NCBI GenBank assembly: GCA_963722075.1
Contig: CAVRJM010000001.1
Location: 64,001 to 128,000, forward strand
Direction of reading: 5' to 3'
DNA: 64,000 bases
From: Candidatus Babeliales bacterium
Lineage (GTDB): Bacteria; Babelota; Babeliae; Babelales; JANWKD01
A model generated the notes under the pieces. It saw only the letters and a list, made by a program, of their open reading frames with translations, was not told where the DNA came from and did no database searches. Numbering within the stretch: position 1 is the first letter of the stretch; each line of letters starts with the position of its first letter. Below are positions 2,316 through 22,234 of this stretch, in pieces. Made by a program: the position numbers and the translations under genes.

Positions 2316-3653
2316 TTATGGAATTGAAACATTTTGAAAGGTAAATGGACTTGATGTATTAAATGTTGCTAATGTTCCTACATAAATTGGAATAACGGTA
2401 GCGCCAGGACTGTAATTGGTTCCATTTTTTATGGCAATATTTGAAACTATGTTATTAGTTGTTGCAGCACCAGCATTATCAAATAATCCAAAGGTGATAG
2501 GGCCACCAACATTATAACCGATCGTATTATTGGTGATATTTGAGGTGGTGGTATTATTAAGATCTATGCCAAAAGACGTATTAGTGAGACCAGTATTTCC
2601 GCGTATATCACAATTTTCAATAGCGCTGAAATCCAAAGAATTGAAAAATACACCATACCCATTATTGGCACCGCCATTTCCTTTTGCTATACAGGTGTGC
2701 AGCTCTATTAAAAGCCCATTACTTGCCGAAAATCCTAAACCATCTAACGCACTACTATTGTTACCATTTCCTTGGCAGCTTATATATTGAATGCCATTGC
2801 CATTATTGGTATAAAATCCGCAGGTAGAAAAGGTGCCAGCATTATCGACAGAAATACATGAATCACATGCAATATTATTTGATGAATCAAATCCAAAGCC
2901 AACCATTAATGAATTTGGATTTGAACTGGTATTACTGTTGTTTAGAGAGAAAGAATTTTGGATGATGCAATCTTTAGAATTGAGTAAATATATTCCCGCT
3001 GTTAAAAGGCCCCCGCCAACATTATCGTTTGCAACAAGGTCATTTATTATAATCGCATTGCAATTTTCAAGTTGTATTCCGACACAATTTCCTGAAGAGG
3101 TTTGAATATTATGCACTAATGACTCATTAGTTATAGTTGCTGAATCAACATTTTTTAATAATATGCCATATGCGGGATCTCCCGAAAAATTCATAATGCT
3201 TTCTGAAGTAACGTTATCGAGAAAAAGATTGGTTATTGGATCTGAGGCATTTCCATCGGCTATAACGCCTGCATTTTCAACTGCATTAATAACTAAATTG
3301 GTTAAATAAATACTATCATTAGGCGCCTGTATTTGAATTCCATAGCTGGTCATATCAGTAATAACGCCATTGTTAATGGTAATATTATTGATTCCAGGAT
3401 TGATTTGTATTCCAACGACATCTGGTTGCTCGAATCCGGCAACTTGGTTAATAGAGAACCCATTCATTTCTATCATGACATTATCAGAGTTAACTACAAC
3501 ACATGCTTGTCCTGATGAAGTTAATGCAAATTCCATTGAGCCAGCTAATGAAAATAACCCTGGCGAATTGATTATTACCGGTTCAGTATTTACGCTCTGC
3601 AGTAAGCGCGGGAAGATTAATGTTAAAAATAAGACAAAACTTTTTTTGTTCAT
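2316..3653 (-). CDS. Secreted right-handed parallel beta-helix (pectin lyase-like) protein; stand-alone type 2 head
   Basis: Signal peptide; N/G/C-rich repeats (GIQLENCNAIIIN, GIYLLNSKDCIIQN); similar to the C-terminal domain of 9194-12304. Confidence 0.85.
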   Translation of the reverse strand: MNKKSFVLFLTLIFPRLLQSVNTEPVIINSPGLFSLAGSMEFALTSSGQACVVVNSDNVMIEMNGFSINQVAGFEQPDVVGIQINPGINNITINNGVITDMTSYGIQIQAPNDSIYLTNLVINAVENAGVIADGNASDPITNLFLDNVTSESIMNFSGDPAYGILLKNVDSATITNESLVHNIQTSSGNCVGIQLENCNAIIINDLVANDNVGGGLLTAGIYLLNSKDCIIQNSFSLNNSNTSSNPNSLMVGFGFDSSNNIACDSCISVDNAGTFSTCGFYTNNGNGIQYISCQGNGNNSSALDGLGFSASNGLLIELHTCIAKGNGGANNGYGVFFNSLDFSAIENCDIRGNTGLTNTSFGIDLNNTTTSNITNNTIGYNVGGPITFGLFDNAGAATTNNIVSNIAIKNGTNYSPGATVIPIYVGTLATFNTSSPFTFQNVSIP

Positions 3654-3686: not shown

Positions 3687-5084
3687 TTAAAAACGTTCTT
3701 CCCAAGCTAATATACCAATTACCAGCTGGCCACCACCTTGAATGTTGATACCTGTTATGGTTAAAGTTTCACCAGGATAAAGATATAAGAGCAAATCTTG
3801 TTCGGGGACAAAGGTATTATAAGGAACTGAGTTAGCATTCATAAAGGTAAACATATTTGTTCCTGATGCAGCCAATCCCCCTGACGTAGTCAACGTTCCT
3901 GCCGTACTGATTTGCATTACAGAATTTACTGTATCAACATCCGTAAAAGAAGTGCCGGTAATACTTGCATTTCGTAGTAATCTAAATAGCGTTACGGTTC
4001 CTCCCGTGACGCCCACGCCAGCTGAAACAAAGGATATACGAACAATAACTTTATTTGGTTTGGTTTGATAGGTAGATTTATTTTGGAATGCTACCACAAA
4101 AGTTTCAGTTCCATTATCGGCAATGGCTGTTCGCGTAAGTTGCCCTGCCGTAAAGAACCTACTTTGAGCAACACTTGGTTCAGCAACAATTCCTGCATTC
4201 CAACCAGCGGTAGCAATAGTTACATTCGTTGTAGAACCGGTCGATTTAACTTGAGCGGTCATGGGTAAAATAGGATTACCAAAAGAAGGATTCGGATTTA
4301 CATTGGTATTATTTATTTGATGGAAGGTGATCCATGAGCCATTGGTATTTAAAATTTGGAAGGTAATTTGGGTACCGCCTGTCCAGCCATAATCAATTCT
4401 GAATACGTTTAAATCTGCAGTATTGATGGTAAATCCGCTTGCTCCAGTACCATTCAATTTATCCATGTTGAATGATGATTGTGGAATTATAGTATCTACC
4501 GCATTTTGCCTAAATAAAATTGAGAATGTTGTGCCATTAAATCCAACAGCAGCGCCATCATTAGCATCAAACACGCCGATCCATTGTGTGGAGTTAGCAG
4601 AAGATCCTGCTGGCCACATAGCAGAAAAGAAAGCGTATCCATCGTGACCTGCCATATATTTAAGATATTTTTTGCTTTGTAGTTGAGCAAAAGCGGTGGC
4701 ACCGGTACCTGATGAAACAATAGCCATGCTCGTGAATGATTGAACAAGCCCTGATGAGAAGACTGATGTAGTAATGTCATATGTTGGTACACCATATTCA
4801 AATAGATCACTAACTTGATCTGTTCTATCTGATACAATAGCATCTCCAAAGCCAGAGGTAAATCCTGAGCTACCGCTGGTTGTACTGCTACATACTAAAT
4901 GGGCCAGAATAGTGAACGTGGCATTAAAGCCGGCAGCGAGTGCGGTGAAGGTACCATTAAAGTCAGTATTAAGGAGAGTGAAAACGCCATTAAAATCATT
5001 AGTTAAATTAGCACAGCAGGTGGTTAAGCTATTATTAATGGAATTAAGAACGGTAAAGGTACCGTTGAATTCTGAATTGATCAA
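3687..5084 (-). CDS. C-terminal fragment of fibre protein A: last stalk units plus type 1 head domain
   Basis: ORF begins inside FNGTFT repeats, then a SSTTSGSSG linker, then the head ending WEERF. Confidence 0.7.
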   Translation of the reverse strand: MINSEFNGTFTVLNSINNSLTTCCANLTNDFNGVFTLLNTDFNGTFTALAAGFNATFTILAHLVCSSTTSGSSGFTSGFGDAIVSDRTDQVSDLFEYGVPTYDITTSVFSSGLVQSFTSMAIVSSGTGATAFAQLQSKKYLKYMAGHDGYAFFSAMWPAGSSANSTQWIGVFDANDGAAVGFNGTTFSILFRQNAVDTIIPQSSFNMDKLNGTGASGFTINTADLNVFRIDYGWTGGTQITFQILNTNGSWITFHQINNTNVNPNPSFGNPILPMTAQVKSTGSTTNVTIATAGWNAGIVAEPSVAQSRFFTAGQLTRTAIADNGTETFVVAFQNKSTYQTKPNKVIVRISFVSAGVGVTGGTVTLFRLLRNASITGTSFTDVDTVNSVMQISTAGTLTTSGGLAASGTNMFTFMNANSVPYNTFVPEQDLLLYLYPGETLTITGINIQGGGQLVIGILAWEERF

Positions 5085-7690
5085 TGTAAAGGTACTGTTA
5101 AAACCGGTAGCAATAGCCGTGAAAGTACCATTAAATTCATTGGTAATGTTAGCGCAACAAGTGGTGAGAGTATTGTTAATAGAATTTAATACCGTAAAGG
5201 TGCCGCAGCATCATTATTAATTGAGGTTACTGAAGAAAGTATTGAATTTAATACCGTGAACGTACCGTTAAAATCATTGGTTAAATTAGCGCAGCACGTA
5301 GTCAATGTATTATTAATTGAATTGAGAACGGTGAATGTGCCATTAAATTCAGTACTAAGTACCGTAAATACAGGTGATAAATTAACGTTCACATTAGAAA
5401 GAGCGGTGAAGACGCCATTAAAATCAGTACTGAGCACAGTAAATACGCCATTAAAGTCGTTAGTTAAATTAGCGCAGCAGGTGGTTAAGCTATTGTTGAT
5501 AGAATTAAGAACGGTGAAGGTACCATTGAATTCTGAGTTTATTAACGTGAAGGTACCATTAAAGCCAGTAGCAATAGCCGTGAAGGTACCATTAAATTCG
5601 TTGGTAATATTGGCACAGCACGTGGTGAGGGTGTTGTTAATAGAATTTAATACCGTAAAGGTGCCCGCAGCATCATTATTAATTGAGGTTACTGAAGAAA
5701 GTATTGAATTTAATACCGTGAAAGTACCACCAAAGTCAGTATTAAGGAGAGTAAATACACCATTAAAATCATTAGTTAAATTAGCACAGCAGGTGGTTAA
5801 GCTATTATTAATTGAATTAAGAACAGTGAAGGTGCCGTTGAATTCTGAATTGATTAAGGTAAATGTACCATTAAAGCCATTACTAAGAACCGTGAAAGTT
5901 CCATTAAATTCATTGGTAATGTTAGCGCAGCACGTGGTGAGGGTATTATTAATAGAATTGAGAACAGTAAAGGTACCAGCAGCATCATTATTAATTGAGG
6001 TTACTGAAGAAAGTATTGAATTTAATACCGTGAAAGTACCACCAAAGTCAGTATTAAGGAGAGTAAATACACCATTAAAATCATTAGTTAAATTAACGCA
6101 GCAGGTGGTTAGGCTATTATTAATGGAGTTAAGGACAGTAAAGGTGCCGTTGAATTCTGAATTGATTAAGGTAAATGTACCATTAAAGCCATTACTAAGA
6201 ACCGTGAAAGTTCCATTAAATTCATTGGTAATGTTAGCGCAGCACGTGGTGAGGGTATTGTTAATAGAATTGAGAACGGTAAATGTGCCAGCAGCTTCAT
6301 TATTAATTGAAGTTACTGATGGAAAGTATTGAATTTAATACGGTGAACGTACCACCAAAATCAGTATTAAGGAGGGTGAAAACGCCATTAAAGTCATTAG
6401 TTAAATTAGCGCAGCAGGTGGTTAAGCTATTATTAATGGAGTTAAGGACAGTAAAGGTGCCGTTGAACTCAGTGTTTAATAATGTGAAGGTACCATTAAA
6501 TTCGTTGGTAATATTGGCACAGCACGTGGTGAGGGTGTTGTTAATAGAATTTAATACCGTAAAGGTGCCCGCAGCATCATTATTAATTGAGGTTACTGAT
6601 GAAAGTATTGAATTTAAAACGGTGAACGTACCATTGAATTCAGTATTTAGGAAAGTGAACGTGCCATTGAATTCGGAATTTATCAAGGTAAAGGTGCCAT
6701 TGAAGTTATTTTGTATTTCTGCACAGCACGTGGTTAATGTGTTCTCTATATCTTCAAGCATGGTGAATGTACCAATAATGGTTTCGATTTGTGTCGTAAG
6801 CGTATTGGTAACATCAATTAGTTCAGAAATAGTGATGATCAGGGATGAAGTACTTTCAACAAGCTCATCCACCGTTTCTACTAAAATAGAGGTGGTTACT
6901 TCTAAGGTGGCAACCAAGGTGCTAAATGTTTGAATAATGCTACAGCAGCTAGTTAATGTATTTTCAATGTCAAAAAGCGTTGTAAAGGTTCCATTGAAAT
7001 TGTTTTGTGTTTGAGCGCAACACGTAGTTAATGTAGTCTCGATATCATTAAGTACCGTAAATACCCCAGTAAAATCAACCGTTGCAGTTAACACGATATT
7101 ATCAAGTACGGTGAAAACGCCATTAAATTCATTAGTAATGTTGGCACAACAGGTAGTGAGCGTATTTTCAATATCATTTAAGACGGTAAAAGTACCATTG
7201 AAATTATTTTGTGTTTGAGCACAGCAGGTGGTTAATGTAGTCTCGATATCATTAAGTACCGTAAATACCCCAGTAAAATCAACCGTTGCAGTTATTACGA
7301 TATTATTAAGTACGGTGAAAACGCCATTAAAGTCATTTTCGATGGTAGCACAACAGGTAGTAAGCGTATTTTCAATATCATTTAAGACGGTAAAAGTACC
7401 ATTGAAATTATTTTGTGTTTGAGCACAGCAGGTGGTTAATGTAGTCTCGATATCATTAAGTACCGTAAATACCCCAGTAAAATCAACCGTTGCAGTTATC
7501 ACGATATTATCAAGTACGGTGAAAACGCCGTTGAAATCATTAGTGAGGTTAGCGCAACATGTTGTAAGGGTATTATTAATATCAGTTAGCGTAGTAAACA
7601 CACCTGAAAAATCGACTGTTGCTGTTACTTGGAGATTATTAAGCACCGTGAAAACGCCGTTGAAATCATTAATTAATGTATCGCAACAAT
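4915..7690 (-). repeat. Intragenic tandem repeats encoding the stalk of fibre A (204-bp and 312-bp higher-order units)
   Basis: Near-identical blocks offset by 204 nt (7228 vs 7432) and 312 nt (5681 vs 5993). Confidence 0.85.
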
Positions 7691-8243
7691 TTTGTTGATT
7701 TTGGCAACATTGATTAATAATATTTTGTAAGTTTCTGAGAATTTGTAAAACTTCAGAAAAATCGCATACTAATGGACCTACAATAGAACCATCCATAAAA
7801 CCGGGCGCATTTGGACGTAGTGCACGTGAGAACTGTTCTTGTAAAGTAGAGTTACTTATTTTTTCAATGATAAACGAGAGTGCTTGATTAAAATCGTTGA
7901 TTGGTAAAACTGTATCTTCATTATCGAGTATTCTATAACAGTTAAGGAAGCCTTGCGGTATTTCATCAATGGTATTGTTTTGGTAACTATATTCTATAAT
8001 TACATTAAAGAGTTCTTTAAGATTTAATCCTTTTAAATCGTCTTCGGTAATAGAAACGCATGGGGTGTTTTCAGATTGAAAATGTTCTTCGCAAGCATCA
8101 GCGGTAGATTGTTCTTCGATTATGTTACGTGAAAATTTTTCTAAATGATCAATATGATATGAGACTGTTACTATTGGTTGTATGAGCAATGATATAAATA
8201 CCAATGAGTTAAAAAAAAGTTTTACCTTCTTTTGTAGCTTCAT
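6303..8243 (-). CDS. N-terminal fragment of fibre protein A: signal peptide, conserved N-domain, TTCC/FNGTFT stalk
   Basis: 646-aa ORF; N-domain closely similar to 9194-12304; ends prematurely just after the indel at 6321. Confidence 0.75.
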   Translation of the reverse strand: MKLQKKVKLFFNSLVFISLLIQPIVTVSYHIDHLEKFSRNIIEEQSTADACEEHFQSENTPCVSITEDDLKGLNLKELFNVIIEYSYQNNTIDEIPQGFLNCYRILDNEDTVLPINDFNQALSFIIEKISNSTLQEQFSRALRPNAPGFMDGSIVGPLVCDFSEVLQILRNLQNIINQCCQNQQNCCDTLINDFNGVFTVLNNLQVTATVDFSGVFTTLTDINNTLTTCCANLTNDFNGVFTVLDNIVITATVDFTGVFTVLNDIETTLTTCCAQTQNNFNGTFTVLNDIENTLTTCCATIENDFNGVFTVLNNIVITATVDFTGVFTVLNDIETTLTTCCAQTQNNFNGTFTVLNDIENTLTTCCANITNEFNGVFTVLDNIVLTATVDFTGVFTVLNDIETTLTTCCAQTQNNFNGTFTTLFDIENTLTSCCSIIQTFSTLVATLEVTTSILVETVDELVESTSSLIITISELIDVTNTLTTQIETIIGTFTMLEDIENTLTTCCAEIQNNFNGTFTLINSEFNGTFTFLNTEFNGTFTVLNSILSSVTSINNDAAGTFTVLNSINNTLTTCCANITNEFNGTFTLLNTEFNGTFTVLNSINNSLTTCCANLTNDFNGVFTLLNTDFGGTFTVLNSILSISNFN

Positions 8244-9193: not shown

Positions 9194-12100
9194 TTATGGA
9201 TTAATATCAATATTATCAAAGCTTCCTGTTGTGCCTGTTGCTGGCAATACGGTACTAAAGCTGCCAGAAACAACGGGCAGTAGTGCAGAAACATAAGTAA
9301 CATCAAAGTTTGTACCATTGTTAAATGCAAAATTAGCACCAACAAGACTGGTGCTTGCATTAGTTGCAACATCTTGTATGCCAAAGCTTACAAATGGTCC
9401 TAAATTATTGGCTAATGAGTTGTTTTGTAGATAACAATTTATGCAGTTGGGTGGTGTTTGGAGATTATCATCCAATAGAATGCCATAACTGAATCCGTTG
9501 GTTGGATCATTTGCGATGTTATTATTACTGGTGCAATATTTTATCGAAGATCCTGTTTCGGCACGGAGTATAAATCCTGCAGCAGATGAGGTTGCTTGGT
9601 TATCTACTGCTACGCAGTATTCTAGCACATTTGCGGTACCCGTTGTGCATATATATCCTGCAGATTCTGTTATTCCTATATTGCCACTTGTTTGGCATTC
9701 TAGTATTTCTGAAGCAGTTTCATTTTCGAGGGAAAATCCATAAGCAGATTCTACGTTGGTAGTATTATTTGTTGAAACGCACTCTTTAAAGACATTGTTT
9801 GCTCCATCCATACTTGCAAATCCAATTGCAGAATCGCCAGCATTATTTGAAGCTTGGCAATTGATAAATACATTATTGCTTGATGAATTTAATACAACAC
9901 CAGCGCCTAATCCCACCGTATATCGAGTTATGTTATTGCCCAAATTACCATTGAATGTGCAATTTTCAATATAATTATCATTACTTCCAATAAGAGATAA
10001 ACCTGAGCTGAATTGGTTTGCAAGGTTACCATTCATAGTGCAATTGAAGAGTGTACAATTAGAACAGTTTAACAAGCCCACTCCAAAAACATCATTATTT
10101 AAATTTTGATTAAAAAGACTGTTTTTAATAACAAGATTAAAACAGTTGAATGCAAAGAGACCACCTAAATTTGAAAGAGTAAATCGAGTAAGCTCTCTAA
10201 ACAGTAACGTAGGAGGAGTATACATAAGTTGACTACAATAGAGCGCAGCACAATGTGTAATTCGTGAATTTACAATTGGGTCGGTATTGGTGGCTTGGGA
10301 AGCAACAAATCCATTGTCACCTAATTGAAAGCCATAAAAATCACAACTTAATGTCGTAATAGTATCAAGTTCTATATCATTTGAACCACCATTTACAACA
10401 ATACCCGCAATAAACATATTTTGTATTATACCATTTTTAATGGTTACATGGGTGGCTGTATCAATAAAAATTCCCGATGAAAGATTTCCAGGAAGCCCAC
10501 CCAGTTGTCTTTGGCAAAGATCGAGTGTTACATCATTTGCCATAATTTGAATTATGGAACTGTATGCAACTCCTGTTGATACAATATTTTCTTGTAAGAA
10601 GTAGTTGCCTGATGTGCTGATAATATAACTTCCTCCAGCAGCATCGACATCGGCTTGTGTAATTGGAATATTGGAGCAGTTTTTATTTACAATGCTGTTA
10701 AGTGCGGTGAAGGTACCATTAAATTCATTAGTGATGTTAGCGCAGCAAGCAGTGAGCGTATTGTTAATGGAGTTTAAAACAGTAAACGTCCCTGCAGATT
10801 CACTATTAATTGAGGTTACTGATGAGAGTATTGAATTTAATACGGTGAACGTACCACCAAAGTCAGTATTAAGAAGGGTGAAGACACCATTAAAGTCATT
10901 AGTTAAATTAGCGCAGCAGGTGGTTAAGCTATTATTAATAGAATTAAGAACGGTAAAGGTCCCGTTGAATTCTGAATTGATTAACGTAAATGTGCTATTG
11001 AAGCCAGTTTCAAGAACAGTGAAAGTGCCATTGAATTCATTAGCGATGTTAGCACAGCAAGCGGTCAATGTATTATTAATAGAATTGAGAACGGTAAAGG
11101 TACCAGCAGCTTCATTATTAATTGAGGTTACTGATGAGAGTATTGAATTTAATACCGTGAAAGTTCCACCAAAGTCAGTATTAAGAAGGGTGAAGACACC
11201 ATTAAAGTCATTAGTTAAATTAGCGCAGCACGTAGTTAAGGTAGAATCGATATCATTAAGTACTGTAAATACACCAGAAAGATCTACAGTAGCAGTTACC
11301 TTCAGGTTACTGAGTACGGTGAAGACACCATTAAAGTCATTTTCGATGGTAGCACAACACTCGGTAAGCGTATTATTAATATCATTTAAGACGGTAAAAG
11401 TACCATTGAAGTTGTATTGTGTTTGAGCACAGCAGGTGGTTAACGTAGTCTCGATATCATTAAGTACCGTAAACACACCAGAAAAATCAACCGTTGCAGT
11501 TATCGTCAAGTTATTAAGAACGGTGAAAACACCATTAAACTCATTGGTAATGTTAGCACAACAGGAAGTAAAAGTAGTTTCAATATCATTAAGAACGGTA
11601 AAGGTGCCATTGAAATTATTTTGTGTTTGAGCGCAACAAGTGGTTAAGGTAGTATTGATTTCACTCAGTGTCGTAAATACATCAGTAAAATCTACCGTTA
11701 CCGTTACCGTCAAATTATTAAGTACGGTAAAAACACCATTCAAATCGTTAATTATAATATTGCAGCATTCTACTTGATTTTGACAACATTGGTTAATAAT
11801 ATTTTGTAAGTTTCGTAAAATTTCTAAAATTTCAGAAAAATCACACACTAACGGTCCAACAATAGAACCATCCATAAAACCAGGTGCATCTGGGCGTGGT
11901 GCTCGTGAAAGCTGTTCTTGAATAGTAGGGTTACATATTTTTTCAATAATAAAAGATAATGATTGATTAAGATCATTAATTGGCAACATCGTGTTATCAG
12001 TATTGAGTATTTTATAACAATTAATGAAAGCTAATGGTATTTCATCAAGCAGGTTATTTTGATAACTATATTCAATAATGATGTTAAAGAGTTCTTTAAG

Positions 12101-12304
12101 ATTTAATCCTTTTAGATCTTCTTCTTTAATAGAAATACAAGGAGCATCTTTTTCAGGTAAGGGAAGAGAATTCTCTTCAATGGTATCTATTGGAAATTTT
12201 TCTAGCGGCCTATATTGGTACGGGAGCAGTACTAATGGTTGTAATAAGAGAGAAATTAATACCAATGAATCAAAAAAAAGTTTTATATTCTTTTGTGGCT
12301 TCAT
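9194..12304 (-). CDS. Cys-Cys repeat fibre protein B with C-terminal beta-helix (type 2) head
   Basis: Signal peptide, N-domain, ~390-aa TTCC/FNGTFT stalk, then YIISTSGNYFLQENI...ANDVTLDL and beta-helix repeats. Confidence 0.85.
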   Translation of the reverse strand: MKPQKNIKLFFDSLVLISLLLQPLVLLPYQYRPLEKFPIDTIEENSLPLPEKDAPCISIKEEDLKGLNLKELFNIIIEYSYQNNLLDEIPLAFINCYKILNTDNTMLPINDLNQSLSFIIEKICNPTIQEQLSRAPRPDAPGFMDGSIVGPLVCDFSEILEILRNLQNIINQCCQNQVECCNIIINDLNGVFTVLNNLTVTVTVDFTDVFTTLSEINTTLTTCCAQTQNNFNGTFTVLNDIETTFTSCCANITNEFNGVFTVLNNLTITATVDFSGVFTVLNDIETTLTTCCAQTQYNFNGTFTVLNDINNTLTECCATIENDFNGVFTVLSNLKVTATVDLSGVFTVLNDIDSTLTTCCANLTNDFNGVFTLLNTDFGGTFTVLNSILSSVTSINNEAAGTFTVLNSINNTLTACCANIANEFNGTFTVLETGFNSTFTLINSEFNGTFTVLNSINNSLTTCCANLTNDFNGVFTLLNTDFGGTFTVLNSILSSVTSINSESAGTFTVLNSINNTLTACCANITNEFNGTFTALNSIVNKNCSNIPITQADVDAAGGSYIISTSGNYFLQENIVSTGVAYSSIIQIMANDVTLDLCQRQLGGLPGNLSSGIFIDTATHVTIKNGIIQNMFIAGIVVNGGSNDIELDTITTLSCDFYGFQLGDNGFVASQATNTDPIVNSRITHCAALYCSQLMYTPPTLLFRELTRFTLSNLGGLFAFNCFNLVIKNSLFNQNLNNDVFGVGLLNCSNCTLFNCTMNGNLANQFSSGLSLIGSNDNYIENCTFNGNLGNNITRYTVGLGAGVVLNSSSNNVFINCQASNNAGDSAIGFASMDGANNVFKECVSTNNTTNVESAYGFSLENETASEILECQTSGNIGITESAGYICTTGTANVLEYCVAVDNQATSSAAGFILRAETGSSIKYCTSNNNIANDPTNGFSYGILLDDNLQTPPNCINCYLQNNSLANNLGPFVSFGIQDVATNASTSLVGANFAFNNGTNFDVTYVSALLPVVSGSFSTVLPATGTTGSFDNIDINP

Positions 12305-14420: not shown

Positions 14421-15698
14421 TTATGCCCATTGTTCTATCCAATTAATTGATGCATTGGCAAAAGTGGAAAGTCCGGTAATTAAATTATAAGCTGTTATCG
14501 TGAGCATATCTCCCGGGTATAATTCAATAATAAGATCATTTTCAGAAGAAGCAAAGGGAGCAACACTTCTGCGGAGCAAATTATTATTCAAACTGGTATT
14601 TGAAAAGGCAGTTAAAAATAATGAACCAGTACCGCTACTATAAGTGCCTGCGGTGCTTACGCTTACTACTGAGTTGCTATTAACCGCTGAAAAAGAGGTA
14701 CCGGTTACCGTTGCATTTTTATAAACATTAAAAACGGTAAACCCGTCAGCCGAGGCTTTAGTTAACAACGCTGATTGAGAAAAGGGAACACTGGTTTGAA
14801 TAAGGGTAATGACTACGGTAATTCTATTTGAAAAACTCTTAAAGGTATTATTATTTTTTATTGATATAAGATATGATTCAGTAGTTCCTATGGCAGCATT
14901 AAAAACTCCAGTGGTAAAAAAACGGTTGCCTGCTATATCATTTGTTGATTGAGTCGCATAATTCCATGATGCTGTTGCCAGTTCTAATATAGTTGCTCCA
15001 GCGGTTTTACTTACTTGAGCTGTTATGGGTAATTGTGGGTTAGAAAATATTGGTGAAGAAATAGTATTAGTTTTTTCGATAGTATGAAAAAGTATCCAGC
15101 TATTATGTTGACTTAAAATATAAAAATTTATTTCACTTGCTTCCCATCCCCAGGCAATTCTAAAAACATTTATATCTGCAGTATTAAGCGTGAAACCACT
15201 GTGTCCAGTGCCATTTAACGGATCTACATTAAATGAGCTTTGTGCAATGGTGGTGCTGGTACCATTATTACGATATAGAATTGAAAAGGTAGTATTATTA
15301 AATCCGATTGCTACGCCATCTGTTTGATTAAAAGGGCCAATCCATTGGGTGGAACTAGTAGCTGATCCATTAAGGAAGGCAGCAGTAAAAAAACAATCAG
15401 ATTCATGCCCGGGATGATATACTACTGATTCATTGCTTTGCACTTGTGCAAAGCCGGTGACTCCGGTACCGCTTGAGACAATCGCCATACTATTGGAACT
15501 CTGAACCGTGCCACTTGAAAAAGTAGAGGTAGTAACTTGATAGGAGGGAATACCATATTGAAATTCAACCACAATATAATCATCACGTGAAGAAACTAGT
15601 GTCTCTTCAAAGATGGAAGTAAACGCTGTTTGATCTTGCGCTTGTATTTGAATAATAAATAAAACAACAAATACAAATATATTTATTATACTATTCAT
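14421..15698 (-). CDS. Secreted stand-alone type 1 head protein (divergent paralog)
   Basis: ATG at 15698 overlaps the fibre C stop (TAATG). Signal peptide; YHPGHES, QWIGPF, VDPLNGTGHSGF, FRIAWGW; ends INWIEQWA. Confidence 0.85.
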   Translation of the reverse strand: MNSIINIFVFVVLFIIQIQAQDQTAFTSIFEETLVSSRDDYIVVEFQYGIPSYQVTTSTFSSGTVQSSNSMAIVSSGTGVTGFAQVQSNESVVYHPGHESDCFFTAAFLNGSATSSTQWIGPFNQTDGVAIGFNNTTFSILYRNNGTSTTIAQSSFNVDPLNGTGHSGFTLNTADINVFRIAWGWEASEINFYILSQHNSWILFHTIEKTNTISSPIFSNPQLPITAQVSKTAGATILELATASWNYATQSTNDIAGNRFFTTGVFNAAIGTTESYLISIKNNNTFKSFSNRITVVITLIQTSVPFSQSALLTKASADGFTVFNVYKNATVTGTSFSAVNSNSVVSVSTAGTYSSGTGSLFLTAFSNTSLNNNLLRRSVAPFASSENDLIIELYPGDMLTITAYNLITGLSTFANASINWIEQWA

Positions 15699-18600
15699 TA
15701 AAATTGTTCTTCCCATGAAAGTGCTGCAATAACTTCAATACTGGATCCTTGTAACGTTTCTCCCACTATCGTGAGAGTGTCTCCTGGATACAGTAAAATG
15801 GAAACCTCAGATGCAGGAATAAACGTTGAAACAGGCCCGCTGCCACTTGTTGAAACGGGCATAAAAAGTATGGTACTACCACCACTAACATAGGTTCCTA
15901 CCACACTATAGGCAATAACTGAGTTATTACCTATTGGGATATAACTGGTTCCCGAATTGGTCGCATTTATGAAGAAAGTAAATAATGCAGAAGCGGCTGA
16001 AGAGGTAGTAATTCCCCCGGAAAAAAATGAAACTCGTACAATTACTTTATTAGGAAGACTTTGGTAAGTAGTTTGGTTTTGAATGGAAAATACATAGGTT
16101 TGCCCGGTAAGAGAGATCTGGTTACTTGACCGTCCAAAAAAGCGGCTATTAGCTACGCTTGGTTGTCCTATAACGCCTGCATTCCATGAACCGGTTGAAA
16201 TGGTGGGGCTTGTACTGTTACTAGCTGTGTTAGTAACAATGGCACTAATAGGGAGTATGGGATTAGAAAAGGTGGGCGTTTGTGCGATATTTGCTCGATT
16301 TATTTGATGGAACGTAATCCAAGACCCATTGGTATCAAGTATTTGATAGATAATAGGGGCGGCGCCAAGCCATCCATAATCTATCCGAAACACATTAAGA
16401 TCATTTGGATTTAACACAAAACCGCTGGGGCCAGTACCATTAAGCGGATCCATATTAAATGAAGATTGGCCTACAATGGTATTAGAACTGTTTTGCCTAA
16501 ATAAAATGGAAAAGGTAGTACCATTAAATCCAACGGCAGCACCATCAACCGAATCAAAAACCCCAATCCATTGAGTTGAGTTCGCTGCGGATCCACTGAA
16601 CATTGCGCTAAAAAAGGCATACCCATCATGGCCAGAGCGATAGCGTAAATATTTTTTGCTCGATAATTGCGCGTATCCCGTGGTTCCCGTTCCAGAAGAT
16701 ATGGTAGCCATGCTAGAAGCAGAAGAAACTACACCAGAGGAGAAGGTAGAAGTAGTTGTATCGTAACCAGTAACGCCGTATTCAAATAAAACGCTTATAT
16801 AATCAAATCTATTTTCGGTAATTGCATCACCAAAAATAGAAACAAAGGGTGTTGGTTGGGTGGTTAAAGTGGTAATAACGCTATTAATTGCCGTGAAGGT
16901 GCTATTGAATCCATTGGTAATACTACTTTGTATGGTAGCCAGTGCAGTATAGGTGCCATTGAATTCATTGGTGATGGTGTTGCAGCACGTAGTGAGTGTA
17001 GTATTAAGCGCACTGAGAGCAGTGAATGTACTATTAAATTCGGTATTAAGAGCGTTGATGGCAGTGAAGGTACCAGCAAAATCAGTATTAATAGTTGTTT
17101 GAATACTGTTAAGAGCCGTGAAAGTACCATTAAATTCATTAGTAATGTTATTGCAGCAGGTAGTGAGTGTTGTATTTAAGGCATTAAGTGCAGTAAAGGT
17201 ACCATTGAACTCTGAATTAATTAAAGTGAAGGTGCTATTAAAACCAGTAGCAAGTGCAGTAAAGGTACCATTGAATTCATTGGTGATATTGTTGCAACAA
17301 GTGGTGAGTGTAGTATTAAGCGCACTGAGAGCAGTGAATGTACTATTAAATTCGGTATTAAGAGCGTTGATGGCAGTGAAGGTACCAGCAAAATCAGCAT
17401 TAATAGTGGTTTGAACAGCGCTAATGGCAGTTAATGTACCGTTAATGCTTTCTTGAGTTATAGAAATAAGACTAAAGGTATATTTAAACTGATTATCAAT
17501 ATCATTATCTAGAGCAGTAAGTGTTGTGAAAACGTTATTGAATTCAGTGCTCATAACAGTGAAGGTACCGTTAAAACCAGCAGCAAGAGCAGTATAGGTG
17601 CCGTTGAATTCATTGGTAATGTTATTGCAGCAGGTAGTGAGTGTTGTATTTAATGCATTAAGTGCAGTAAAGGTACCATTAGAAGCATTAGTGATTGAAT
17701 TAAGTACAGTAAAGGTACCATTGAACTCTGAATTAATTAACGTGAAGGTGCTATTAAAACCAGTAGCAAGTGCAGTAAAGGTACCATTGAATTCATTGGT
17801 GATGGTGTTGCAGCACGTAGTGAGTGTAGTATTAAGCGCACTGAGAGCAGTGAATGTGCTATTAAATTCGGTATTAAGAGCGTTGATGGCAGTGAAGGTA
17901 CCAGCAAAATCAGTATTAATAGTTGTTTGAATACTATTAAGAGCCGTGAAAGTACCATTAAATTCATTAGTAATGTTATTGCAGCAGGTAGTGAGTGTTG
18001 TATTTAAGGCATTAAGTGCAGTAAAGGTACCATTAGAAGCATTAGTGATTGAATTAAGCACGGTGAAAGTACTATTGAATTCTGAATTAATTAACGTGAA
18101 GGTGCTATTAAAACCAGTAGCAAGTGCAGTATAGGTACCATTAAATTCATTGGTGATATTGTTGCAACAAGTGGTGAGTGTAGTATTAAGCGCACTGAGT
18201 ACGGTGAATGTGCTATTAAATTCGGTATTAAGAGCGTTGATGGCAGTGAAGGTACCAGCAAAATCAGTATTAATAGTTGTTTGAATACTATTAAGAGCCG
18301 TGAAAGTACCATTAAATTCATTAGTAATGTTATTGCAGCAGGTAGTGAGTGTTGTATTTAAGGCATTAAGTGCAGTAAAGGTACCATTAGAAGCATTAGT
18401 GATTGAATTAAGCACGGTGAAAGTACTATTGAATTCTGAATTAATTAAAGTGAAGGTGCTATTAAAACCAGTAGCAAGTGCAGTATAGGTACCGTTAAAT
18501 TCATTGGTGATATTGTTGCAACAAGTGGTGAGTGTTGTGTTCAATGCACTGAGCGTAGTAAAGATACCAGAAAAATCTACGGTTGCAGTTACATTGAGAT

Positions 18601-20200
18601 TATTGAGTGTAGTAAACACCCCATTAAATTCGTTAGTAATGTTGTTGCAGCAAGTCGTGAGCGTTGTATTTAATGCACTTAAAACGGTGAAGGTGCTATT
18701 GAACTCAGAACTGATTAAGGTGAAGGTACCGTTAAAGCCGGTATCGATTGCAGTGAAGGTTCCGTTAAATTCATTGGTGATATTAGCACAACATGCAGTA
18801 AGTGTATTGTTCAGATCTTCAATTATAGTGAAAGCACCTACCAAGTCAGCAAGTTGTGTGGTTAATGTTTCAGTAACTTCTAGTAGTGCAGAAATAGTAA
18901 TAATCAGGCCTGACGTACTTTCAACGAGTTCATCTACTGCTTCTACTAAAATAGAGGTGGTAACTTCTAAGGTAGCAACCAATGTACTAAATGTTTGAAT
19001 AACGCTACAGCAACTAGTTAATGTATTTTCAATATCATTGAGTGTGGTAAAGGTGCCATTAAAATTGTTTTCTGTTTGGGCACAGCAGGTGGTTAACGTA
19101 GTCTCGATATCATTAAGTACCGTAAATACCCCAGAAAAATCAACCGTTGCAGTTATCATGATATTATCAAGTACGGTGAAGACGCCATTAAATTCATTAG
19201 TGATGTTAGCACAACAGGTAGTGAGCGTACTTTCAATATCATTTAAGACGGTAAAAGTTCCATTGAAATTATTTTGAGTTTGAGCACAGCAGGTGGTTAA
19301 TGTAGTCTCGATATCATTAAGTACCGTGAATACCCCAGTAAAATCAACCGTTGCAGTTATCACGATATTATCAAGTACGGTGAAAACGCCATTAAATTCA
19401 TTAGTGATGTTAGCACAACAGGTAGTGAGCGTACTTTCAATATCATTTAAGACGGTAAAAGTTCCATTGAAATCATTAGTAAGATAAGCGCAACATGTTG
19501 TAAGGGTATTATTAATATCAGTTAGCGTAGTAAACACACCCGAAAAATCAACTGTTGTTGTTATTTGAAGATTATTAAGAACAGTAAAAACGCCATTGAA
19601 ATCATTAATTAAGGTATCGCAACAATTTATTTGGTTTTGACAACATTCTTGAATGAATATTTGTAATGATTTTAATGCATCTAAAATGGTAGCTAATTCT
19701 AATGACTGAGGCCCTACAATTGCATTTTCAGTTCCGATAGGGCGTGGTGCTCGGTTAAGAATGGCTATTGTTGCCGGATCCGTGAGCTTTTTTATAATGA
19801 AAGGTAATGCTTGATTTAAATCGATAATATCCACATGTGATAGGCCATTTTGAACAGCTTTACAACAATTAATAAATTCTTGTGGTATTTCTTCTAATGA
19901 ATTAGTTTCAACACAACTTTCAATGATTAAAGTGAGGAGCTCGGTAAAATTGATGCCGTCAATATTTTCTGGGTTAACATCAAAATAGCGATGGAAATCA
20001 GTACAGCATTCTTTTAGATCTTGGTTATACGCTATTTTATGCGATGTAGGTGATGGGTCCTGTGCATGATGGCTATGGGTGATCTGCTCTGTATAATTAA
20101 TATTTGATATGCTTTGCAATGCGCATATATAAGGGTTAGTAAATAATATAAGAGATAGAATAATGTGTATATAATCATTATTTTTTTTGAAAAGCTTCAT
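15698..20200 (-). CDS. Cys-Cys repeat fibre protein C (~1500 aa) with type 1 head
   Basis: Intact ORF, AAGGAA RBS before ATG 20200. Signal peptide, N-domain, ~930-aa stalk with 354-bp tandem units, head ending WEEQF. Confidence 0.88.
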   Translation of the reverse strand: MKLFKKNNDYIHIILSLILFTNPYICALQSISNINYTEQITHSHHAQDPSPTSHKIAYNQDLKECCTDFHRYFDVNPENIDGINFTELLTLIIESCVETNSLEEIPQEFINCCKAVQNGLSHVDIIDLNQALPFIIKKLTDPATIAILNRAPRPIGTENAIVGPQSLELATILDALKSLQIFIQECCQNQINCCDTLINDFNGVFTVLNNLQITTTVDFSGVFTTLTDINNTLTTCCAYLTNDFNGTFTVLNDIESTLTTCCANITNEFNGVFTVLDNIVITATVDFTGVFTVLNDIETTLTTCCAQTQNNFNGTFTVLNDIESTLTTCCANITNEFNGVFTVLDNIMITATVDFSGVFTVLNDIETTLTTCCAQTENNFNGTFTTLNDIENTLTSCCSVIQTFSTLVATLEVTTSILVEAVDELVESTSGLIITISALLEVTETLTTQLADLVGAFTIIEDLNNTLTACCANITNEFNGTFTAIDTGFNGTFTLISSEFNSTFTVLSALNTTLTTCCNNITNEFNGVFTTLNNLNVTATVDFSGIFTTLSALNTTLTTCCNNITNEFNGTYTALATGFNSTFTLINSEFNSTFTVLNSITNASNGTFTALNALNTTLTTCCNNITNEFNGTFTALNSIQTTINTDFAGTFTAINALNTEFNSTFTVLSALNTTLTTCCNNITNEFNGTYTALATGFNSTFTLINSEFNSTFTVLNSITNASNGTFTALNALNTTLTTCCNNITNEFNGTFTALNSIQTTINTDFAGTFTAINALNTEFNSTFTALSALNTTLTTCCNTITNEFNGTFTALATGFNSTFTLINSEFNGTFTVLNSITNASNGTFTALNALNTTLTTCCNNITNEFNGTYTALAAGFNGTFTVMSTEFNNVFTTLTALDNDIDNQFKYTFSLISITQESINGTLTAISAVQTTINADFAGTFTAINALNTEFNSTFTALSALNTTLTTCCNNITNEFNGTFTALATGFNSTFTLINSEFNGTFTALNALNTTLTTCCNNITNEFNGTFTALNSIQTTINTDFAGTFTAINALNTEFNSTFTALSALNTTLTTCCNTITNEFNGTYTALATIQSSITNGFNSTFTAINSVITTLTTQPTPFVSIFGDAITENRFDYISVLFEYGVTGYDTTTSTFSSGVVSSASSMATISSGTGTTGYAQLSSKKYLRYRSGHDGYAFFSAMFSGSAANSTQWIGVFDSVDGAAVGFNGTTFSILFRQNSSNTIVGQSSFNMDPLNGTGPSGFVLNPNDLNVFRIDYGWLGAAPIIYQILDTNGSWITFHQINRANIAQTPTFSNPILPISAIVTNTASNSTSPTISTGSWNAGVIGQPSVANSRFFGRSSNQISLTGQTYVFSIQNQTTYQSLPNKVIVRVSFFSGGITTSSAASALFTFFINATNSGTSYIPIGNNSVIAYSVVGTYVSGGSTILFMPVSTSGSGPVSTFIPASEVSILLYPGDTLTIVGETLQGSSIEVIAALSWEEQF
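16880..19630 (-). repeat. Intragenic stalk repeats of fibre C (354-bp higher-order unit = 118 aa)
   Basis: Near-identical blocks offset by 354 nt (17946 vs 18300; 17737 vs 18091). Confidence 0.85.
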
Positions 20201-20236
20201 ATCCAATTCCTTTTTTTTATTTCTTTTTTTATGAAA

Positions 20237-20338: not shown

Positions 20339-22234
20339 ATGAGGCCTCATAAAATCATGCATTACATGCATCGCACGGCTCAACTTGGATTACTAAGAAG
20401 TTGTTTACTTATTGGTAAGCGAATTATGAAAAAATATCAGCATCGTTCATTAAAAGCGAAAGTGCTTGCTAAAAAATCCTTTCATCCATGGTCGTATATA
20501 ATAAAAAAATATAAATATCGTGCTGATTTTAGTTTTTTTTGGAAGGAAAGAAAAAAGAAATTACAGCTAACAGTTGCTGATATACAACTATCGGTATCTT
20601 CTGAAGATCTTTTAACCCAAGCGTTTGAAATTACTAATAACAATTTTACAATTTTAGGATCTTCTAAAAGAAGTTTTACTTATTTGCCATGGCATAGTGA
20701 TATTCGCTTAGCCCAAACAGATGAGAAAAATAGTTATTTTGATCGTGAGCTATTTTATAAAGAGATACTTATTACTTATGGCACTGATAAAAATCTCATT
20801 AAAGATATTAAGGTACCGTGGGAATTATCGCGATTACAGCACTTCTTTGTTTTAGGTGCCGCGTACCAAAAAAGAGCGGATAGTGCATATGTAAGAACGT
20901 TTATTGATCATTTTAATGATTGGTATAAAAATAATAGCTTTTTGCTGGGTCCTAACTGGGTATGCCCTATGGATGTTGGTATTAGAGCCGTTAATATAAT
21001 ATGGGCACTTGCATTATTAAAAGATAGTCCTGAATTGTCATTAGATTTTTTACAAACAATAACCGGTAGTTTATATGACCATTTTGTGTATTTAGAACAA
21101 AATTGGGAAAAGTATGATGATTTAAAAACATCCAATCATTATTTATCTGATTTAATTGGTTATTTCTATTTATGTTATTATTTCTCTGATTTTGCCGCCA
21201 TTGCCAAAAAAACACAATGGTGTTATCAAGAATTATTAACAGAATTTGAAAAACAGATTTTTGATGAGGGAACTGATTATGAAGGATCAACTGCGTACCA
21301 TGTATTAATTACCGAAATTTTTTACCATTTTTATATGCTTGGTCAAAAAATGGGTTTTGTTTTTCCTGATTCATTTATCATCAAATTAAAGCGCATGTTT
21401 ACCTTTATTGATTGGTGTAAAGCAGGAAAAGAGGAACCATTATTGCTTATTGGTGATAATGATTCGGGTAAAATTTTATTCTATGGGCTCAGTAGTTCGT
21501 TAATTGAATCAATGAAAGAAGTGGCTACGAATGAAAAAAAAGATTTTCCAGAATTTGGGCTTTCTATTATTAAAAATGAGCGGGTGCATTGTTCATTACG
21601 CCATTATGTATATCAGGAAAAACAGCCTTCTGGCCATTTTCATAATGATGCTGCCAGTATCACTCTTACGGTAAATAATATTCCTCTTTTTATTGATCCT
21701 GGTACGTATGTATACACGCCGTCAGCATGGTGGCGTAATTATTTTAGATCAGTTAAACAACATAATACTTTTTATATTCAAGATACTGAACCGGTTGAAT
21801 TTACTGAACATCTTTTTGAACATAGGATGCCGGCTGCATCCTGCCAATATGAAATTGACAAAATAGATAAGTTAAAAACAGCTCATAATTTATATAAAGA
21901 GCGATATGGATTACGGGCATCTCGGGAAATTAGCTGCTTACAGAATAAAATACAAATAACTGATATTTGGCGTTCTCAGCGCTCAATAGATCCACATCTA
22001 TTTGGTGTATGGAATTTTATGCTTAATCCCGCAATAATTGCTAAAAAAACGATGCATGGATTTAGTTTCATTAATGAAAATCGAGAAATTGCACAATTTA
22101 CTTCAACGCTCGATTTTGTTATTAAAGATGGTTTTATATCATATGCCTACGGTACTAAAGTGCCTACCGTTCGCTTAGAAGCAGTGGTCAACATAATGCA
22201 TGATGATCCGGTGATATCTATTATAGAGTTTTAA
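20339..22234 (+). CDS. Heparinase II/III-family protein
   Basis: DIKVPWELSRLQH, NWVCPMDVGIRAVN, SNHYLSDLIG, EGSTAYH, GHFHND, IDPGTYVY, HNT motifs. Exact start uncertain. Confidence 0.88.
   Translation: MRPHKIMHYMHRTAQLGLLRSCLLIGKRIMKKYQHRSLKAKVLAKKSFHPWSYIIKKYKYRADFSFFWKERKKKLQLTVADIQLSVSSEDLLTQAFEITNNNFTILGSSKRSFTYLPWHSDIRLAQTDEKNSYFDRELFYKEILITYGTDKNLIKDIKVPWELSRLQHFFVLGAAYQKRADSAYVRTFIDHFNDWYKNNSFLLGPNWVCPMDVGIRAVNIIWALALLKDSPELSLDFLQTITGSLYDHFVYLEQNWEKYDDLKTSNHYLSDLIGYFYLCYYFSDFAAIAKKTQWCYQELLTEFEKQIFDEGTDYEGSTAYHVLITEIFYHFYMLGQKMGFVFPDSFIIKLKRMFTFIDWCKAGKEEPLLLIGDNDSGKILFYGLSSSLIESMKEVATNEKKDFPEFGLSIIKNERVHCSLRHYVYQEKQPSGHFHNDAASITLTVNNIPLFIDPGTYVYTPSAWWRNYFRSVKQHNTFYIQDTEPVEFTEHLFEHRMPAASCQYEIDKIDKLKTAHNLYKERYGLRASREISCLQNKIQITDIWRSQRSIDPHLFGVWNFMLNPAIIAKKTMHGFSFINENREIAQFTSTLDFVIKDGFISYAYGTKVPTVRLEAVVNIMHDDPVISIIEF

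Follow-up and report, generated by a model that had tools for sequence, protein, structure and literature searches.

Tetrabrachion combines a long multi-chain stalk with an 11-residue periodicity, and variation through recombination of repeats is among the general features of trimeric autotransporters. Members of the latter class such as YadA, NadA and UspA are modular coiled coils of mixed heptads and hendecads that carry alpha/beta connectors and heads (in part from excerpts of PMC4786415), and in an engineered RSV F trimer, consecutive cysteines at the core-flanking G-A positions of a parallel coil gave several inter-protomer rings (PMC4476739, in excerpt). Here we describe gene A, a 1502-amino-acid (aa) open reading frame (ORF) beginning at TTG (15698..20206, minus strand) in a 64,000-nucleotide stretch of a Candidatus Babeliales genome, hereafter the window, with particular attention to the segment 16880-19630, which corresponds to aa 193-1109. 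The features of gene A and its paralogs located below lie on the same strand; the source genome is 1.47 Mb in size with 34.7% GC and 99% completeness, and the homologs of gene A that carry names belong to Ca. Dependentiae or Babeliales. The segment likely serves as the stalk in an exported fibre, in which at least three chains would run as a parallel coiled coil of about 140 nm, probably stapled by disulfide rings and ending in a C-terminal head that probably binds glycans.

Cutting the gene A segment after [GSN][TVAI][FY]T yields 45 intervals, of which 16 have 25 residues, 12 have 11, eight have 18 and seven have 14, together with one interval of 73 and one of 50. An earlier note, made from the letters of the window, had listed units of 11, 14, 18, 21 and 25 residues; the parse bears out four of these lengths in gene A, but none of the three copies of the 21-mer lies inside 16880-19630. 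The sequence quoted in that note for the 25-mer (0 of 5 copies in the segment) and the VNVNLSP motif (0 of 1) belong instead to a neighbouring gene, paralog C, as does a 312-bp repeat whose best match within the segment is 218/312 and whose real array spans 5420-6500. Two proposed super-repeats were recovered exactly, namely a 354-bp unit (17607..18553, 2.7 copies, 568/593 bases identical at lag 354) whose 118 aa decompose as 25+11+11+14+25+18+14, and a 204-bp unit (19023..19607, 232/251 bases identical) whose 68 aa decompose as 18+25+25. The near-absence of Lys, Arg and Pro also holds (one, none and none in 917 aa), and all 36 cysteines of the segment fall into 18 vicinal pairs (CC). These pairs, described earlier as periodic, are indeed phase-locked, but they follow several periods (spacings of 25, 43, 47, 57, 61, 73 and 111) and not one constant spacing. 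A non-repetitive insert of 73 residues (7+66; window 18827-19045), rich in Val, Thr and Glu and common to genes A and C, also keeps the helical phase.

The unit grammar was further examined across the stalk family, which was found in 20/261 genomes of the phylum. The fit exceeds chance, for among the 26 possible lengths between 7 and 32 residues just 10 are sums of 7 and 11. In a first set, comprising 85 of the 91 proteins examined and counting distinct units of 7-32 aa, lengths of the form 7a+11b were found for 334/344 CC units (97%), 358/429 other units and 103/141 capped units, a capped unit being one that ends D/N-hydrophobic-S/T-x-V/I/A-F/Y-T/S. A held-out set was drawn from a profile search of 1.84 billion representatives (345 matches at E 0.001, of which the best 150 were listed), in which 133 matches were new; once 22 of these had been set aside for having a sampled 40-mer in common with the first set, 111 proteins were left, 104 of which gave units. 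Parsed with a slightly stricter anchor pattern, and retrieved with a profile of the same repeats, these proteins conformed in 198/204 CC units, 300/340 other units and 57/92 capped units; the input included weak profile matches that appear to be unrelated repeats (P0208, a snail protein; P0226; P0201). The position of the first cysteine within its unit equalled 5 plus some combination of 7s and 11s in 439/456 cases of the first set and 245/270 of the held-out set; because units descend by copying, none of these counts represents independent events. The unit grammar of the gene A stalk is real, and we infer that lengths built from 7s and 11s alone survive, since these preserve the phase of the helix.

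Fourier analysis of hydrophobicity along aa 196-1109 (914 residues) reveals a single dominant period of 3.572, or 25/7, with a power of 404 against 138 for the next peak. This continuous period lies within the range of 3.5-3.67 of heptad/hendecad coils, the length changes among distinct CC units are limited to sums of 7 and 11 as counted above, and a period of 25/7 corresponds to a slightly left-handed coiled coil. The complete stalk (aa 172-1109, 16880..19693), with 7/11 units and 19 CC pairs of which 18 lie within the segment, would be about 140 nm long at about 940 residues and 1.5 A per residue. A low-confidence AlphaFold monomer of aa 60-345 is helical, with breaks at 212-221 and 280-289 and a fold-back turn at 247-253. 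The register-preserving heptad/hendecad coil of the earlier note is thus supported by the spectral peak, by the grammar kept in relatives and by the helical model, and the beta-solenoid that would have spoken against it is not seen there, as no strand or solenoid was assigned in this model. The "Phe-rich core" has to be revised, since Phe residues are offset by +45 and +84 degrees from the middle of the hydrophobic face and hence flank the core; the face itself is broad, at about -73 to +84 degrees. Searches with the stalk returned generic helical bundles from the fold comparison of the monomer (best Z 9.7) and unnamed clusters, all under 0.9, from the ESM Atlas. With respect to chain number, a trimer is quite possible, a tetramer appears doubtful, and five or more chains seem rather unlikely. 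Matches of gene A to tape-measure PHROG families were rejected as compositional, with the signal-like start and the housekeeping neighbours speaking against them.

The placement of the cysteines on this helix is consistent with ring closure. Over aa 551-894 (six copies of one unit type), the first cysteine (C1) lies at -45 and the second (C2) at +56 degrees about the hydrophobic centre, so that consecutive cysteines flank the core at the fixed register counted above, as in a cysteine zipper. In a parametric Crick model, the C1-C2' Cbeta distance is 4.2-4.8 A for a trimer (radius 6.1), 3.6-4.6 A for a tetramer, 3.3-4.1 A for a pentamer and 5.5-5.8 A for a dimer, where disulfides span about 3.4-4.5 A. 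At the measured phase, ring closure is therefore compatible with assemblies of at least three chains, and tetramers and pentamers suit it no less well than trimers. The earlier proposal that the pairs face the core as disulfide or metal rings gains support from this phase and model, with disulfide favoured over metal, and inter-chain disulfide rings probably staple the stalk. Strict pairing extends to the stalks counted in the source genome, whose 2856 residues include 67 CC and not one unpaired Cys, and no His occurs in the gene A stalk. Where the RSV F zipper is engineered, this stalk is natural and bacterial, comprises about 19 layers over 940 residues and follows 25/7 instead of a heptad; it would be a natural cysteine zipper, a design known to date chiefly from engineered proteins.

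Several results weigh against a disulfide-ringed fibre. The stalk model is of low confidence (mean pLDDT 58.8, pTM 0.39; stalk pLDDT 40-58) and its monomer folds back, a trimer widened to radius 6.6 has distances of 5.0-5.6 A and is hardly better than a dimer, the phase angles derive from a single unit type (six copies) and a single hydrophobicity scale, and a membrane anchor is not evident in gene A. The source genome, at 99% completeness, contains VKOR but gave no match to DsbA, DsbB or Thioredoxin_4. VKOR occurs in 14/20 carriers of the stalk family against 62/241 other genomes of the phylum, but this link is largely one of family: carriers against others number 1/4 against 41/76 in f19 and 0/2 against 1/2 in f2, next to 3/3 against 1/1 in f1, 2/2 against 8/39 in f3 and 5/6 against 2/4 in f11, with 2/2 carriers in f17. 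Genomes G258 and G259 have CC in short stalks, and searches for VKOR, DsbB and Thioredoxin_4 found none in either. Genome G126, in turn, possesses VKOR but has a single-Cys stalk (1 CC in 2972 aa) that cannot close the same ring.

Cysteine content varies within the family, as counted over the fetched loci and not over whole genomes. Densities of 0.9-4.0 CC per 100 aa were found in 11/14 VKOR carriers, the exceptions being G126 and two genomes with only 2 units. The stalks of G113, in which VKOR, DsbB and Thioredoxin_4 were searched and none found, keep the grammar in 187/188 units, yet contain 7 CC in 3580 aa (0.2 per 100 aa); since a Cys-poor relative keeps the grammar, the rings appear to be optional, a reinforcement and not the fold itself. 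The nearly Cys-free G113 stalk (L069-L071) consists almost entirely of 18-mers, and the G126 stalk (L072-L074) carries one Cys per layer in units of 22, 14 and 18. VKOR lies about 3.6 kb from the stalk genes in G003 (L025:941-1339), with housekeeping genes between, and about 8 kb away in G004 (C6:89551-89910); both belong to one genus, and the proximity may be incidental. In the source genome, a thioredoxin with WCGPC, a signal-like start and an extra Cys pair (G000:C1:236484-236978) is a candidate VKOR partner.

The helix of the stalk is interrupted by xITATVDF segments, of which gene A has four, each within an 18-mer. Interruptions 1 (aa 212-221, 19544..19573) and 2 (aa 280-289, 19340..19369) are the two modelled ones and coincide with the AlphaFold helix breaks, where pLDDT is low, and interruptions 3 (aa 348-357, 19136..19165) and 4 (aa 536-545, 18572..18601) were assigned by their shared unit type. 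Among relatives, 78/141 capped units are 18-mers within a range of 14-23 residues, with alternating hydrophobic residues, and Pro stands four from the unit end in 28/145 and 12/104 capped units of the first and held-out sets against 0/405 and 0/244 CC units. Asp occupies unit position 12 in 99% of cases, although the class was defined with D/N there, and the helix restarts just after it in the low-confidence model. The earlier note had offered these segments as beta-layers. Length variation, Pro and the AlphaFold breaks bear them out as helix interruptions, but a canonical beta-layer combines a 2- or 6-residue insertion with a subsequent D/N/T/S cap and D/E/Q at g (PMC4786415, as excerpted). 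The common 18-mer contains no such insertion, the minority lengths of 16, 17, 20 and 23 could fit, and the g position after the connector is mostly S/P/G. The connectors resemble described alpha/beta coiled coils in their short extended segment and in a small hydrophobic residue after which an almost unvarying Asp offers a possible N-cap (same excerpts), and differ in that the common unit has 18 residues and keeps the register, with an extended part that looks about 7-10 residues long. Given the missing insertion in the common 18-mer, a longer extended connector fits better than a canonical beta-layer, and the connector may be a new alpha/beta element.

The gene A head (aa 1111-1502, 392 aa) was modelled with confidence by AlphaFold (pLDDT 90.3, pTM 0.85) as two beta domains. 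Domain 1 (16157..16840) has the ConA-like jelly roll of the GH16 and L-type lectin fold, with Z 17.7 to the GH16 lichenase 3i4i (rmsd 2.7, 179 aligned) and Z 14.2 to the ERGIC-53 lectin (1r1z, 8jp4), and it also resembles legume and Emp47 lectins. The GH16 catalytic motif ExDxxE is absent from the head sequence, and thus binding is more likely than cutting; on the modelled fold, the head probably binds protist surface glycans. Domain 2 (15701..16156) is all-beta and about 150 aa long; it may resemble TNF/C1q, and an ESM Atlas search with it gave no usable match. Searches of PDB sequences with the head found no match at E 1 from the single sequence and three unrelated ones (E 0.13-0.23) from a profile. 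The two domains together (15701-16876) match phrog_1645 virion structural proteins (E 1e-37) and viral models, the best 17 of which reach TM 0.70-0.87, the look-alikes coming from tailed phages, haloviruses, Bodo saltans virus, Mimivirus and Pyramimonas virus. With phrog_1645 virion proteins, haloviruses, Bodo saltans virus and Mimivirus, gene A thus has the whole two-domain head in common; unlike these look-alikes, it is chromosomal, lies among housekeeping genes, bears a likely signal peptide and carries a CC stalk. ERGIC-53 likewise joins a lectin-fold head to a long multi-chain stalk, but in the opposite domain order, and gene A differs from both ERGIC-53 and tetrabrachion, with no sequence relationship shown, in its net left-handed period of 3.57 and its predicted CC rings.

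Among the alternatives, the same multi-chain coil could hold its Cys layers reduced, with at least six thiols per layer binding metal or packing as small core residues. This is unlikely: three-Cys metal sites are known from designed trimers, no DsbA/DsbB family match was found in the genome, CC stalks occur in G258 and G259 without a detected oxidase, and the single-Cys version of G126 and the survival of the grammar through the near-loss of CC in G113 suit it as well, but the signal-like N-terminus implies an oxidising compartment, VKOR is present, and the cysteines are strictly paired in a stalk without His. A parallel dimer with symmetric inter-chain disulfides, resembling PLVAP, is improbable, as it would bring C1-C1' or C2-C2' to 3.3-4.2 A only with the helix rotated 25-45 degrees from the measured phase, at which every distance is at least 5.4 A; it would also use one Cys of each strict pair, and the breadth of the hydrophobic face speaks against it too. 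Slightly more improbable still is a single chain folded into antiparallel helical bundles with turns at xITATVDF and intra-chain disulfides. The AlphaFold monomer does fold in this manner and its matches are generic helical bundles, but the regions concerned have pLDDT 40-58, about 340 aa (551-894) lack a connector, the phase runs unbroken across the gene A connectors, which a hairpin would not need, and paralogs differ freely in how much helix separates their connectors.

A structural role in the coat or envelope network of an infectious particle or vacuole, where CC would cross-link neighbouring fibres into a mesh, is quite unlikely. Cysteine-rich chlamydial or spore coats provide the analogy for such a mesh, the genome encodes nine paralogous genes, and Baculo_PEP_C (PF04513) scores above its cut-off (72.7 vs 38 bits). 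That score, however, is summed over 8 stretches of repetitive helix and stands beside many unrelated coiled-coil families, with the PEP N-terminal family not among the matches; moreover, the cysteines point to the coil core and not outward, the heads are diverse (lectin, beta-helix, propeller) and only 20/261 genomes match. Degenerate outer-membrane synthesis, as described for TM6 in excerpts of PMC4776705, would also suit a coat. An N-glycosylated, mucin-like stalk, in which the unit end supplies D/E-x-N-x-S/T sequons, was considered because sequons number 71 where shuffles give 47.7 +/- 5.6, extended ones number 23 where shuffles give 3.3, and the sequon density is the highest of 532 long ORFs. 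It is very improbable and was rejected: searches of the genome for STT3 and GT41 gave no match, plain sequons are barely enriched in paralogs B and C, and with Asn in the 25-mer 43% conserved against 87% for Thr, the sequon is a by-product of core Thr. A search for HMW1C_N carries no weight, as it matched in none of the control genomes. A trimeric autotransporter adhesin was likewise rejected: YadA_anchor (PF03895) had no match in the source genome (the control matched in E. coli only), the domain order is reversed, with a C-terminal head, and the C-terminal 392 aa were modelled as two beta domains in place of a beta-barrel anchor. Gene A is also Cys-rich, unlike that class, although its product would function much as such a fibre does.

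The exported multi-chain fibre would then arise as follows. The chains would leave by Sec, with assembly and oxidation outside the cytoplasm, and could exit through a secretin channel; the source genome has two secretins, and type II secretion genes are reported for TM6 (PMC4776705, excerpted text). Each CC would close a ring by joining the first Cys of one chain to the second Cys of its neighbour, with oxidation depending on VKOR. Gain and loss of units by recombination would change length without loss of register, the xITATVDF segments would act as brief extended links, each closed by a helix cap, and the head, displayed at a distance set by unit number, would mediate adhesion, with the N-terminal domain as a candidate anchor. 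A more elaborate picture seems doubtful, namely a four- or five-stranded 25/7 cysteine-zipper fibre with some 19 disulfide rings, passing a secretin already folded, bearing a virus-exchanged lectin head, representing an adhesin class independent of autotransporters and existing in natural two-, one- and near-zero-Cys versions.

Dependentiae are parasites of protists (PMC6561590 and PMC12172432, both in excerpt), and for their attachment the comparative genomics in the excerpted PMC4776705 offers only a possible type IV pilus. For attachment to protists and entry into them, the stalk family provides concrete, expressible candidates with swappable heads. For the coiled-coil field, it is a natural test set in which a 25/7 period is kept through hundreds of unit rearrangements with repeated vicinal-Cys layers, and the 25-, 18- and 11-residue modules could become covalent oligomerisation tags. 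Literature searches, with subscription journals and supplements outside their scope, found no published description of the family; the new results are the test of the grammar across relatives and on held-out proteins, the geometry of the modelled rings, the account of the connectors, the virus-shared lectin-fold head and the Cys-poor lineages.

Ahead of the stalk, gene A more likely starts at an ATG at 20200 than at TTG, and a basic start followed by a hydrophobic stretch, judged by eye, marks a likely Sec signal peptide (aa 3-30, 20117..20200). A conserved helical N-terminal domain (aa 90-149, 19760..19939; AlphaFold pLDDT 87-94, family alignment) is a candidate anchor or pro-domain. It is followed by an [RK]APRP...IVGP linker (aa 152-166, 19709..19753) found in 7 ORFs of the genome and in the alignment consensus, whose basic [RK]xxR-P motif directly before the stalk is family-wide, kept even without the N-domain, and possibly a processing or tethering site.

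The source genome has nine stalk genes in three clusters, with three genes inside the window and heads C-terminal in genes A, B and C. Paralog B (1036 aa, 9194..12304) joins a gene A-type N-domain and stalk to a beta-helix head. Paralog C (3687..8243), with a lectin-type head, 21-mers, the 312-bp repeat and VNVNLSP, is split into three frames (6303-8243, about 5189-6334 and 3687-5210) by single-base breaks at about 6322 and 5203, where the repeat copies are identical apart from an extra C in one case and a missing G in the other, both in short runs. Two gapless contigs cover 6322 but have just 12 and 19 bases to one side of it, fewer than the bridging rule demands, and 5203 is uncovered; the breaks may be assembly errors or phase variation. 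Elsewhere in the family, in paralogs and relatives, heads are beta-helices or beta-helices with a propeller.

Stalk-less heads with signal-like starts flank the fibre genes at 14421-15716, 994-2271 and 2316-3653, two of them lectin-type and one beta-helix-like. The first (14421..15716, minus strand) is lectin-type by sequence matches and has its own signal-like N-terminus; these genes may encode spare heads or soluble binders. A heparinase II/III-like gene (window 20339-22234), divergent from gene A, is a possible partner on host glycans. Outside the window, a 3738-aa Asn/Thr-rich ORF (G000:C1:1231436-1242649) directly follows a distant paralog pair.

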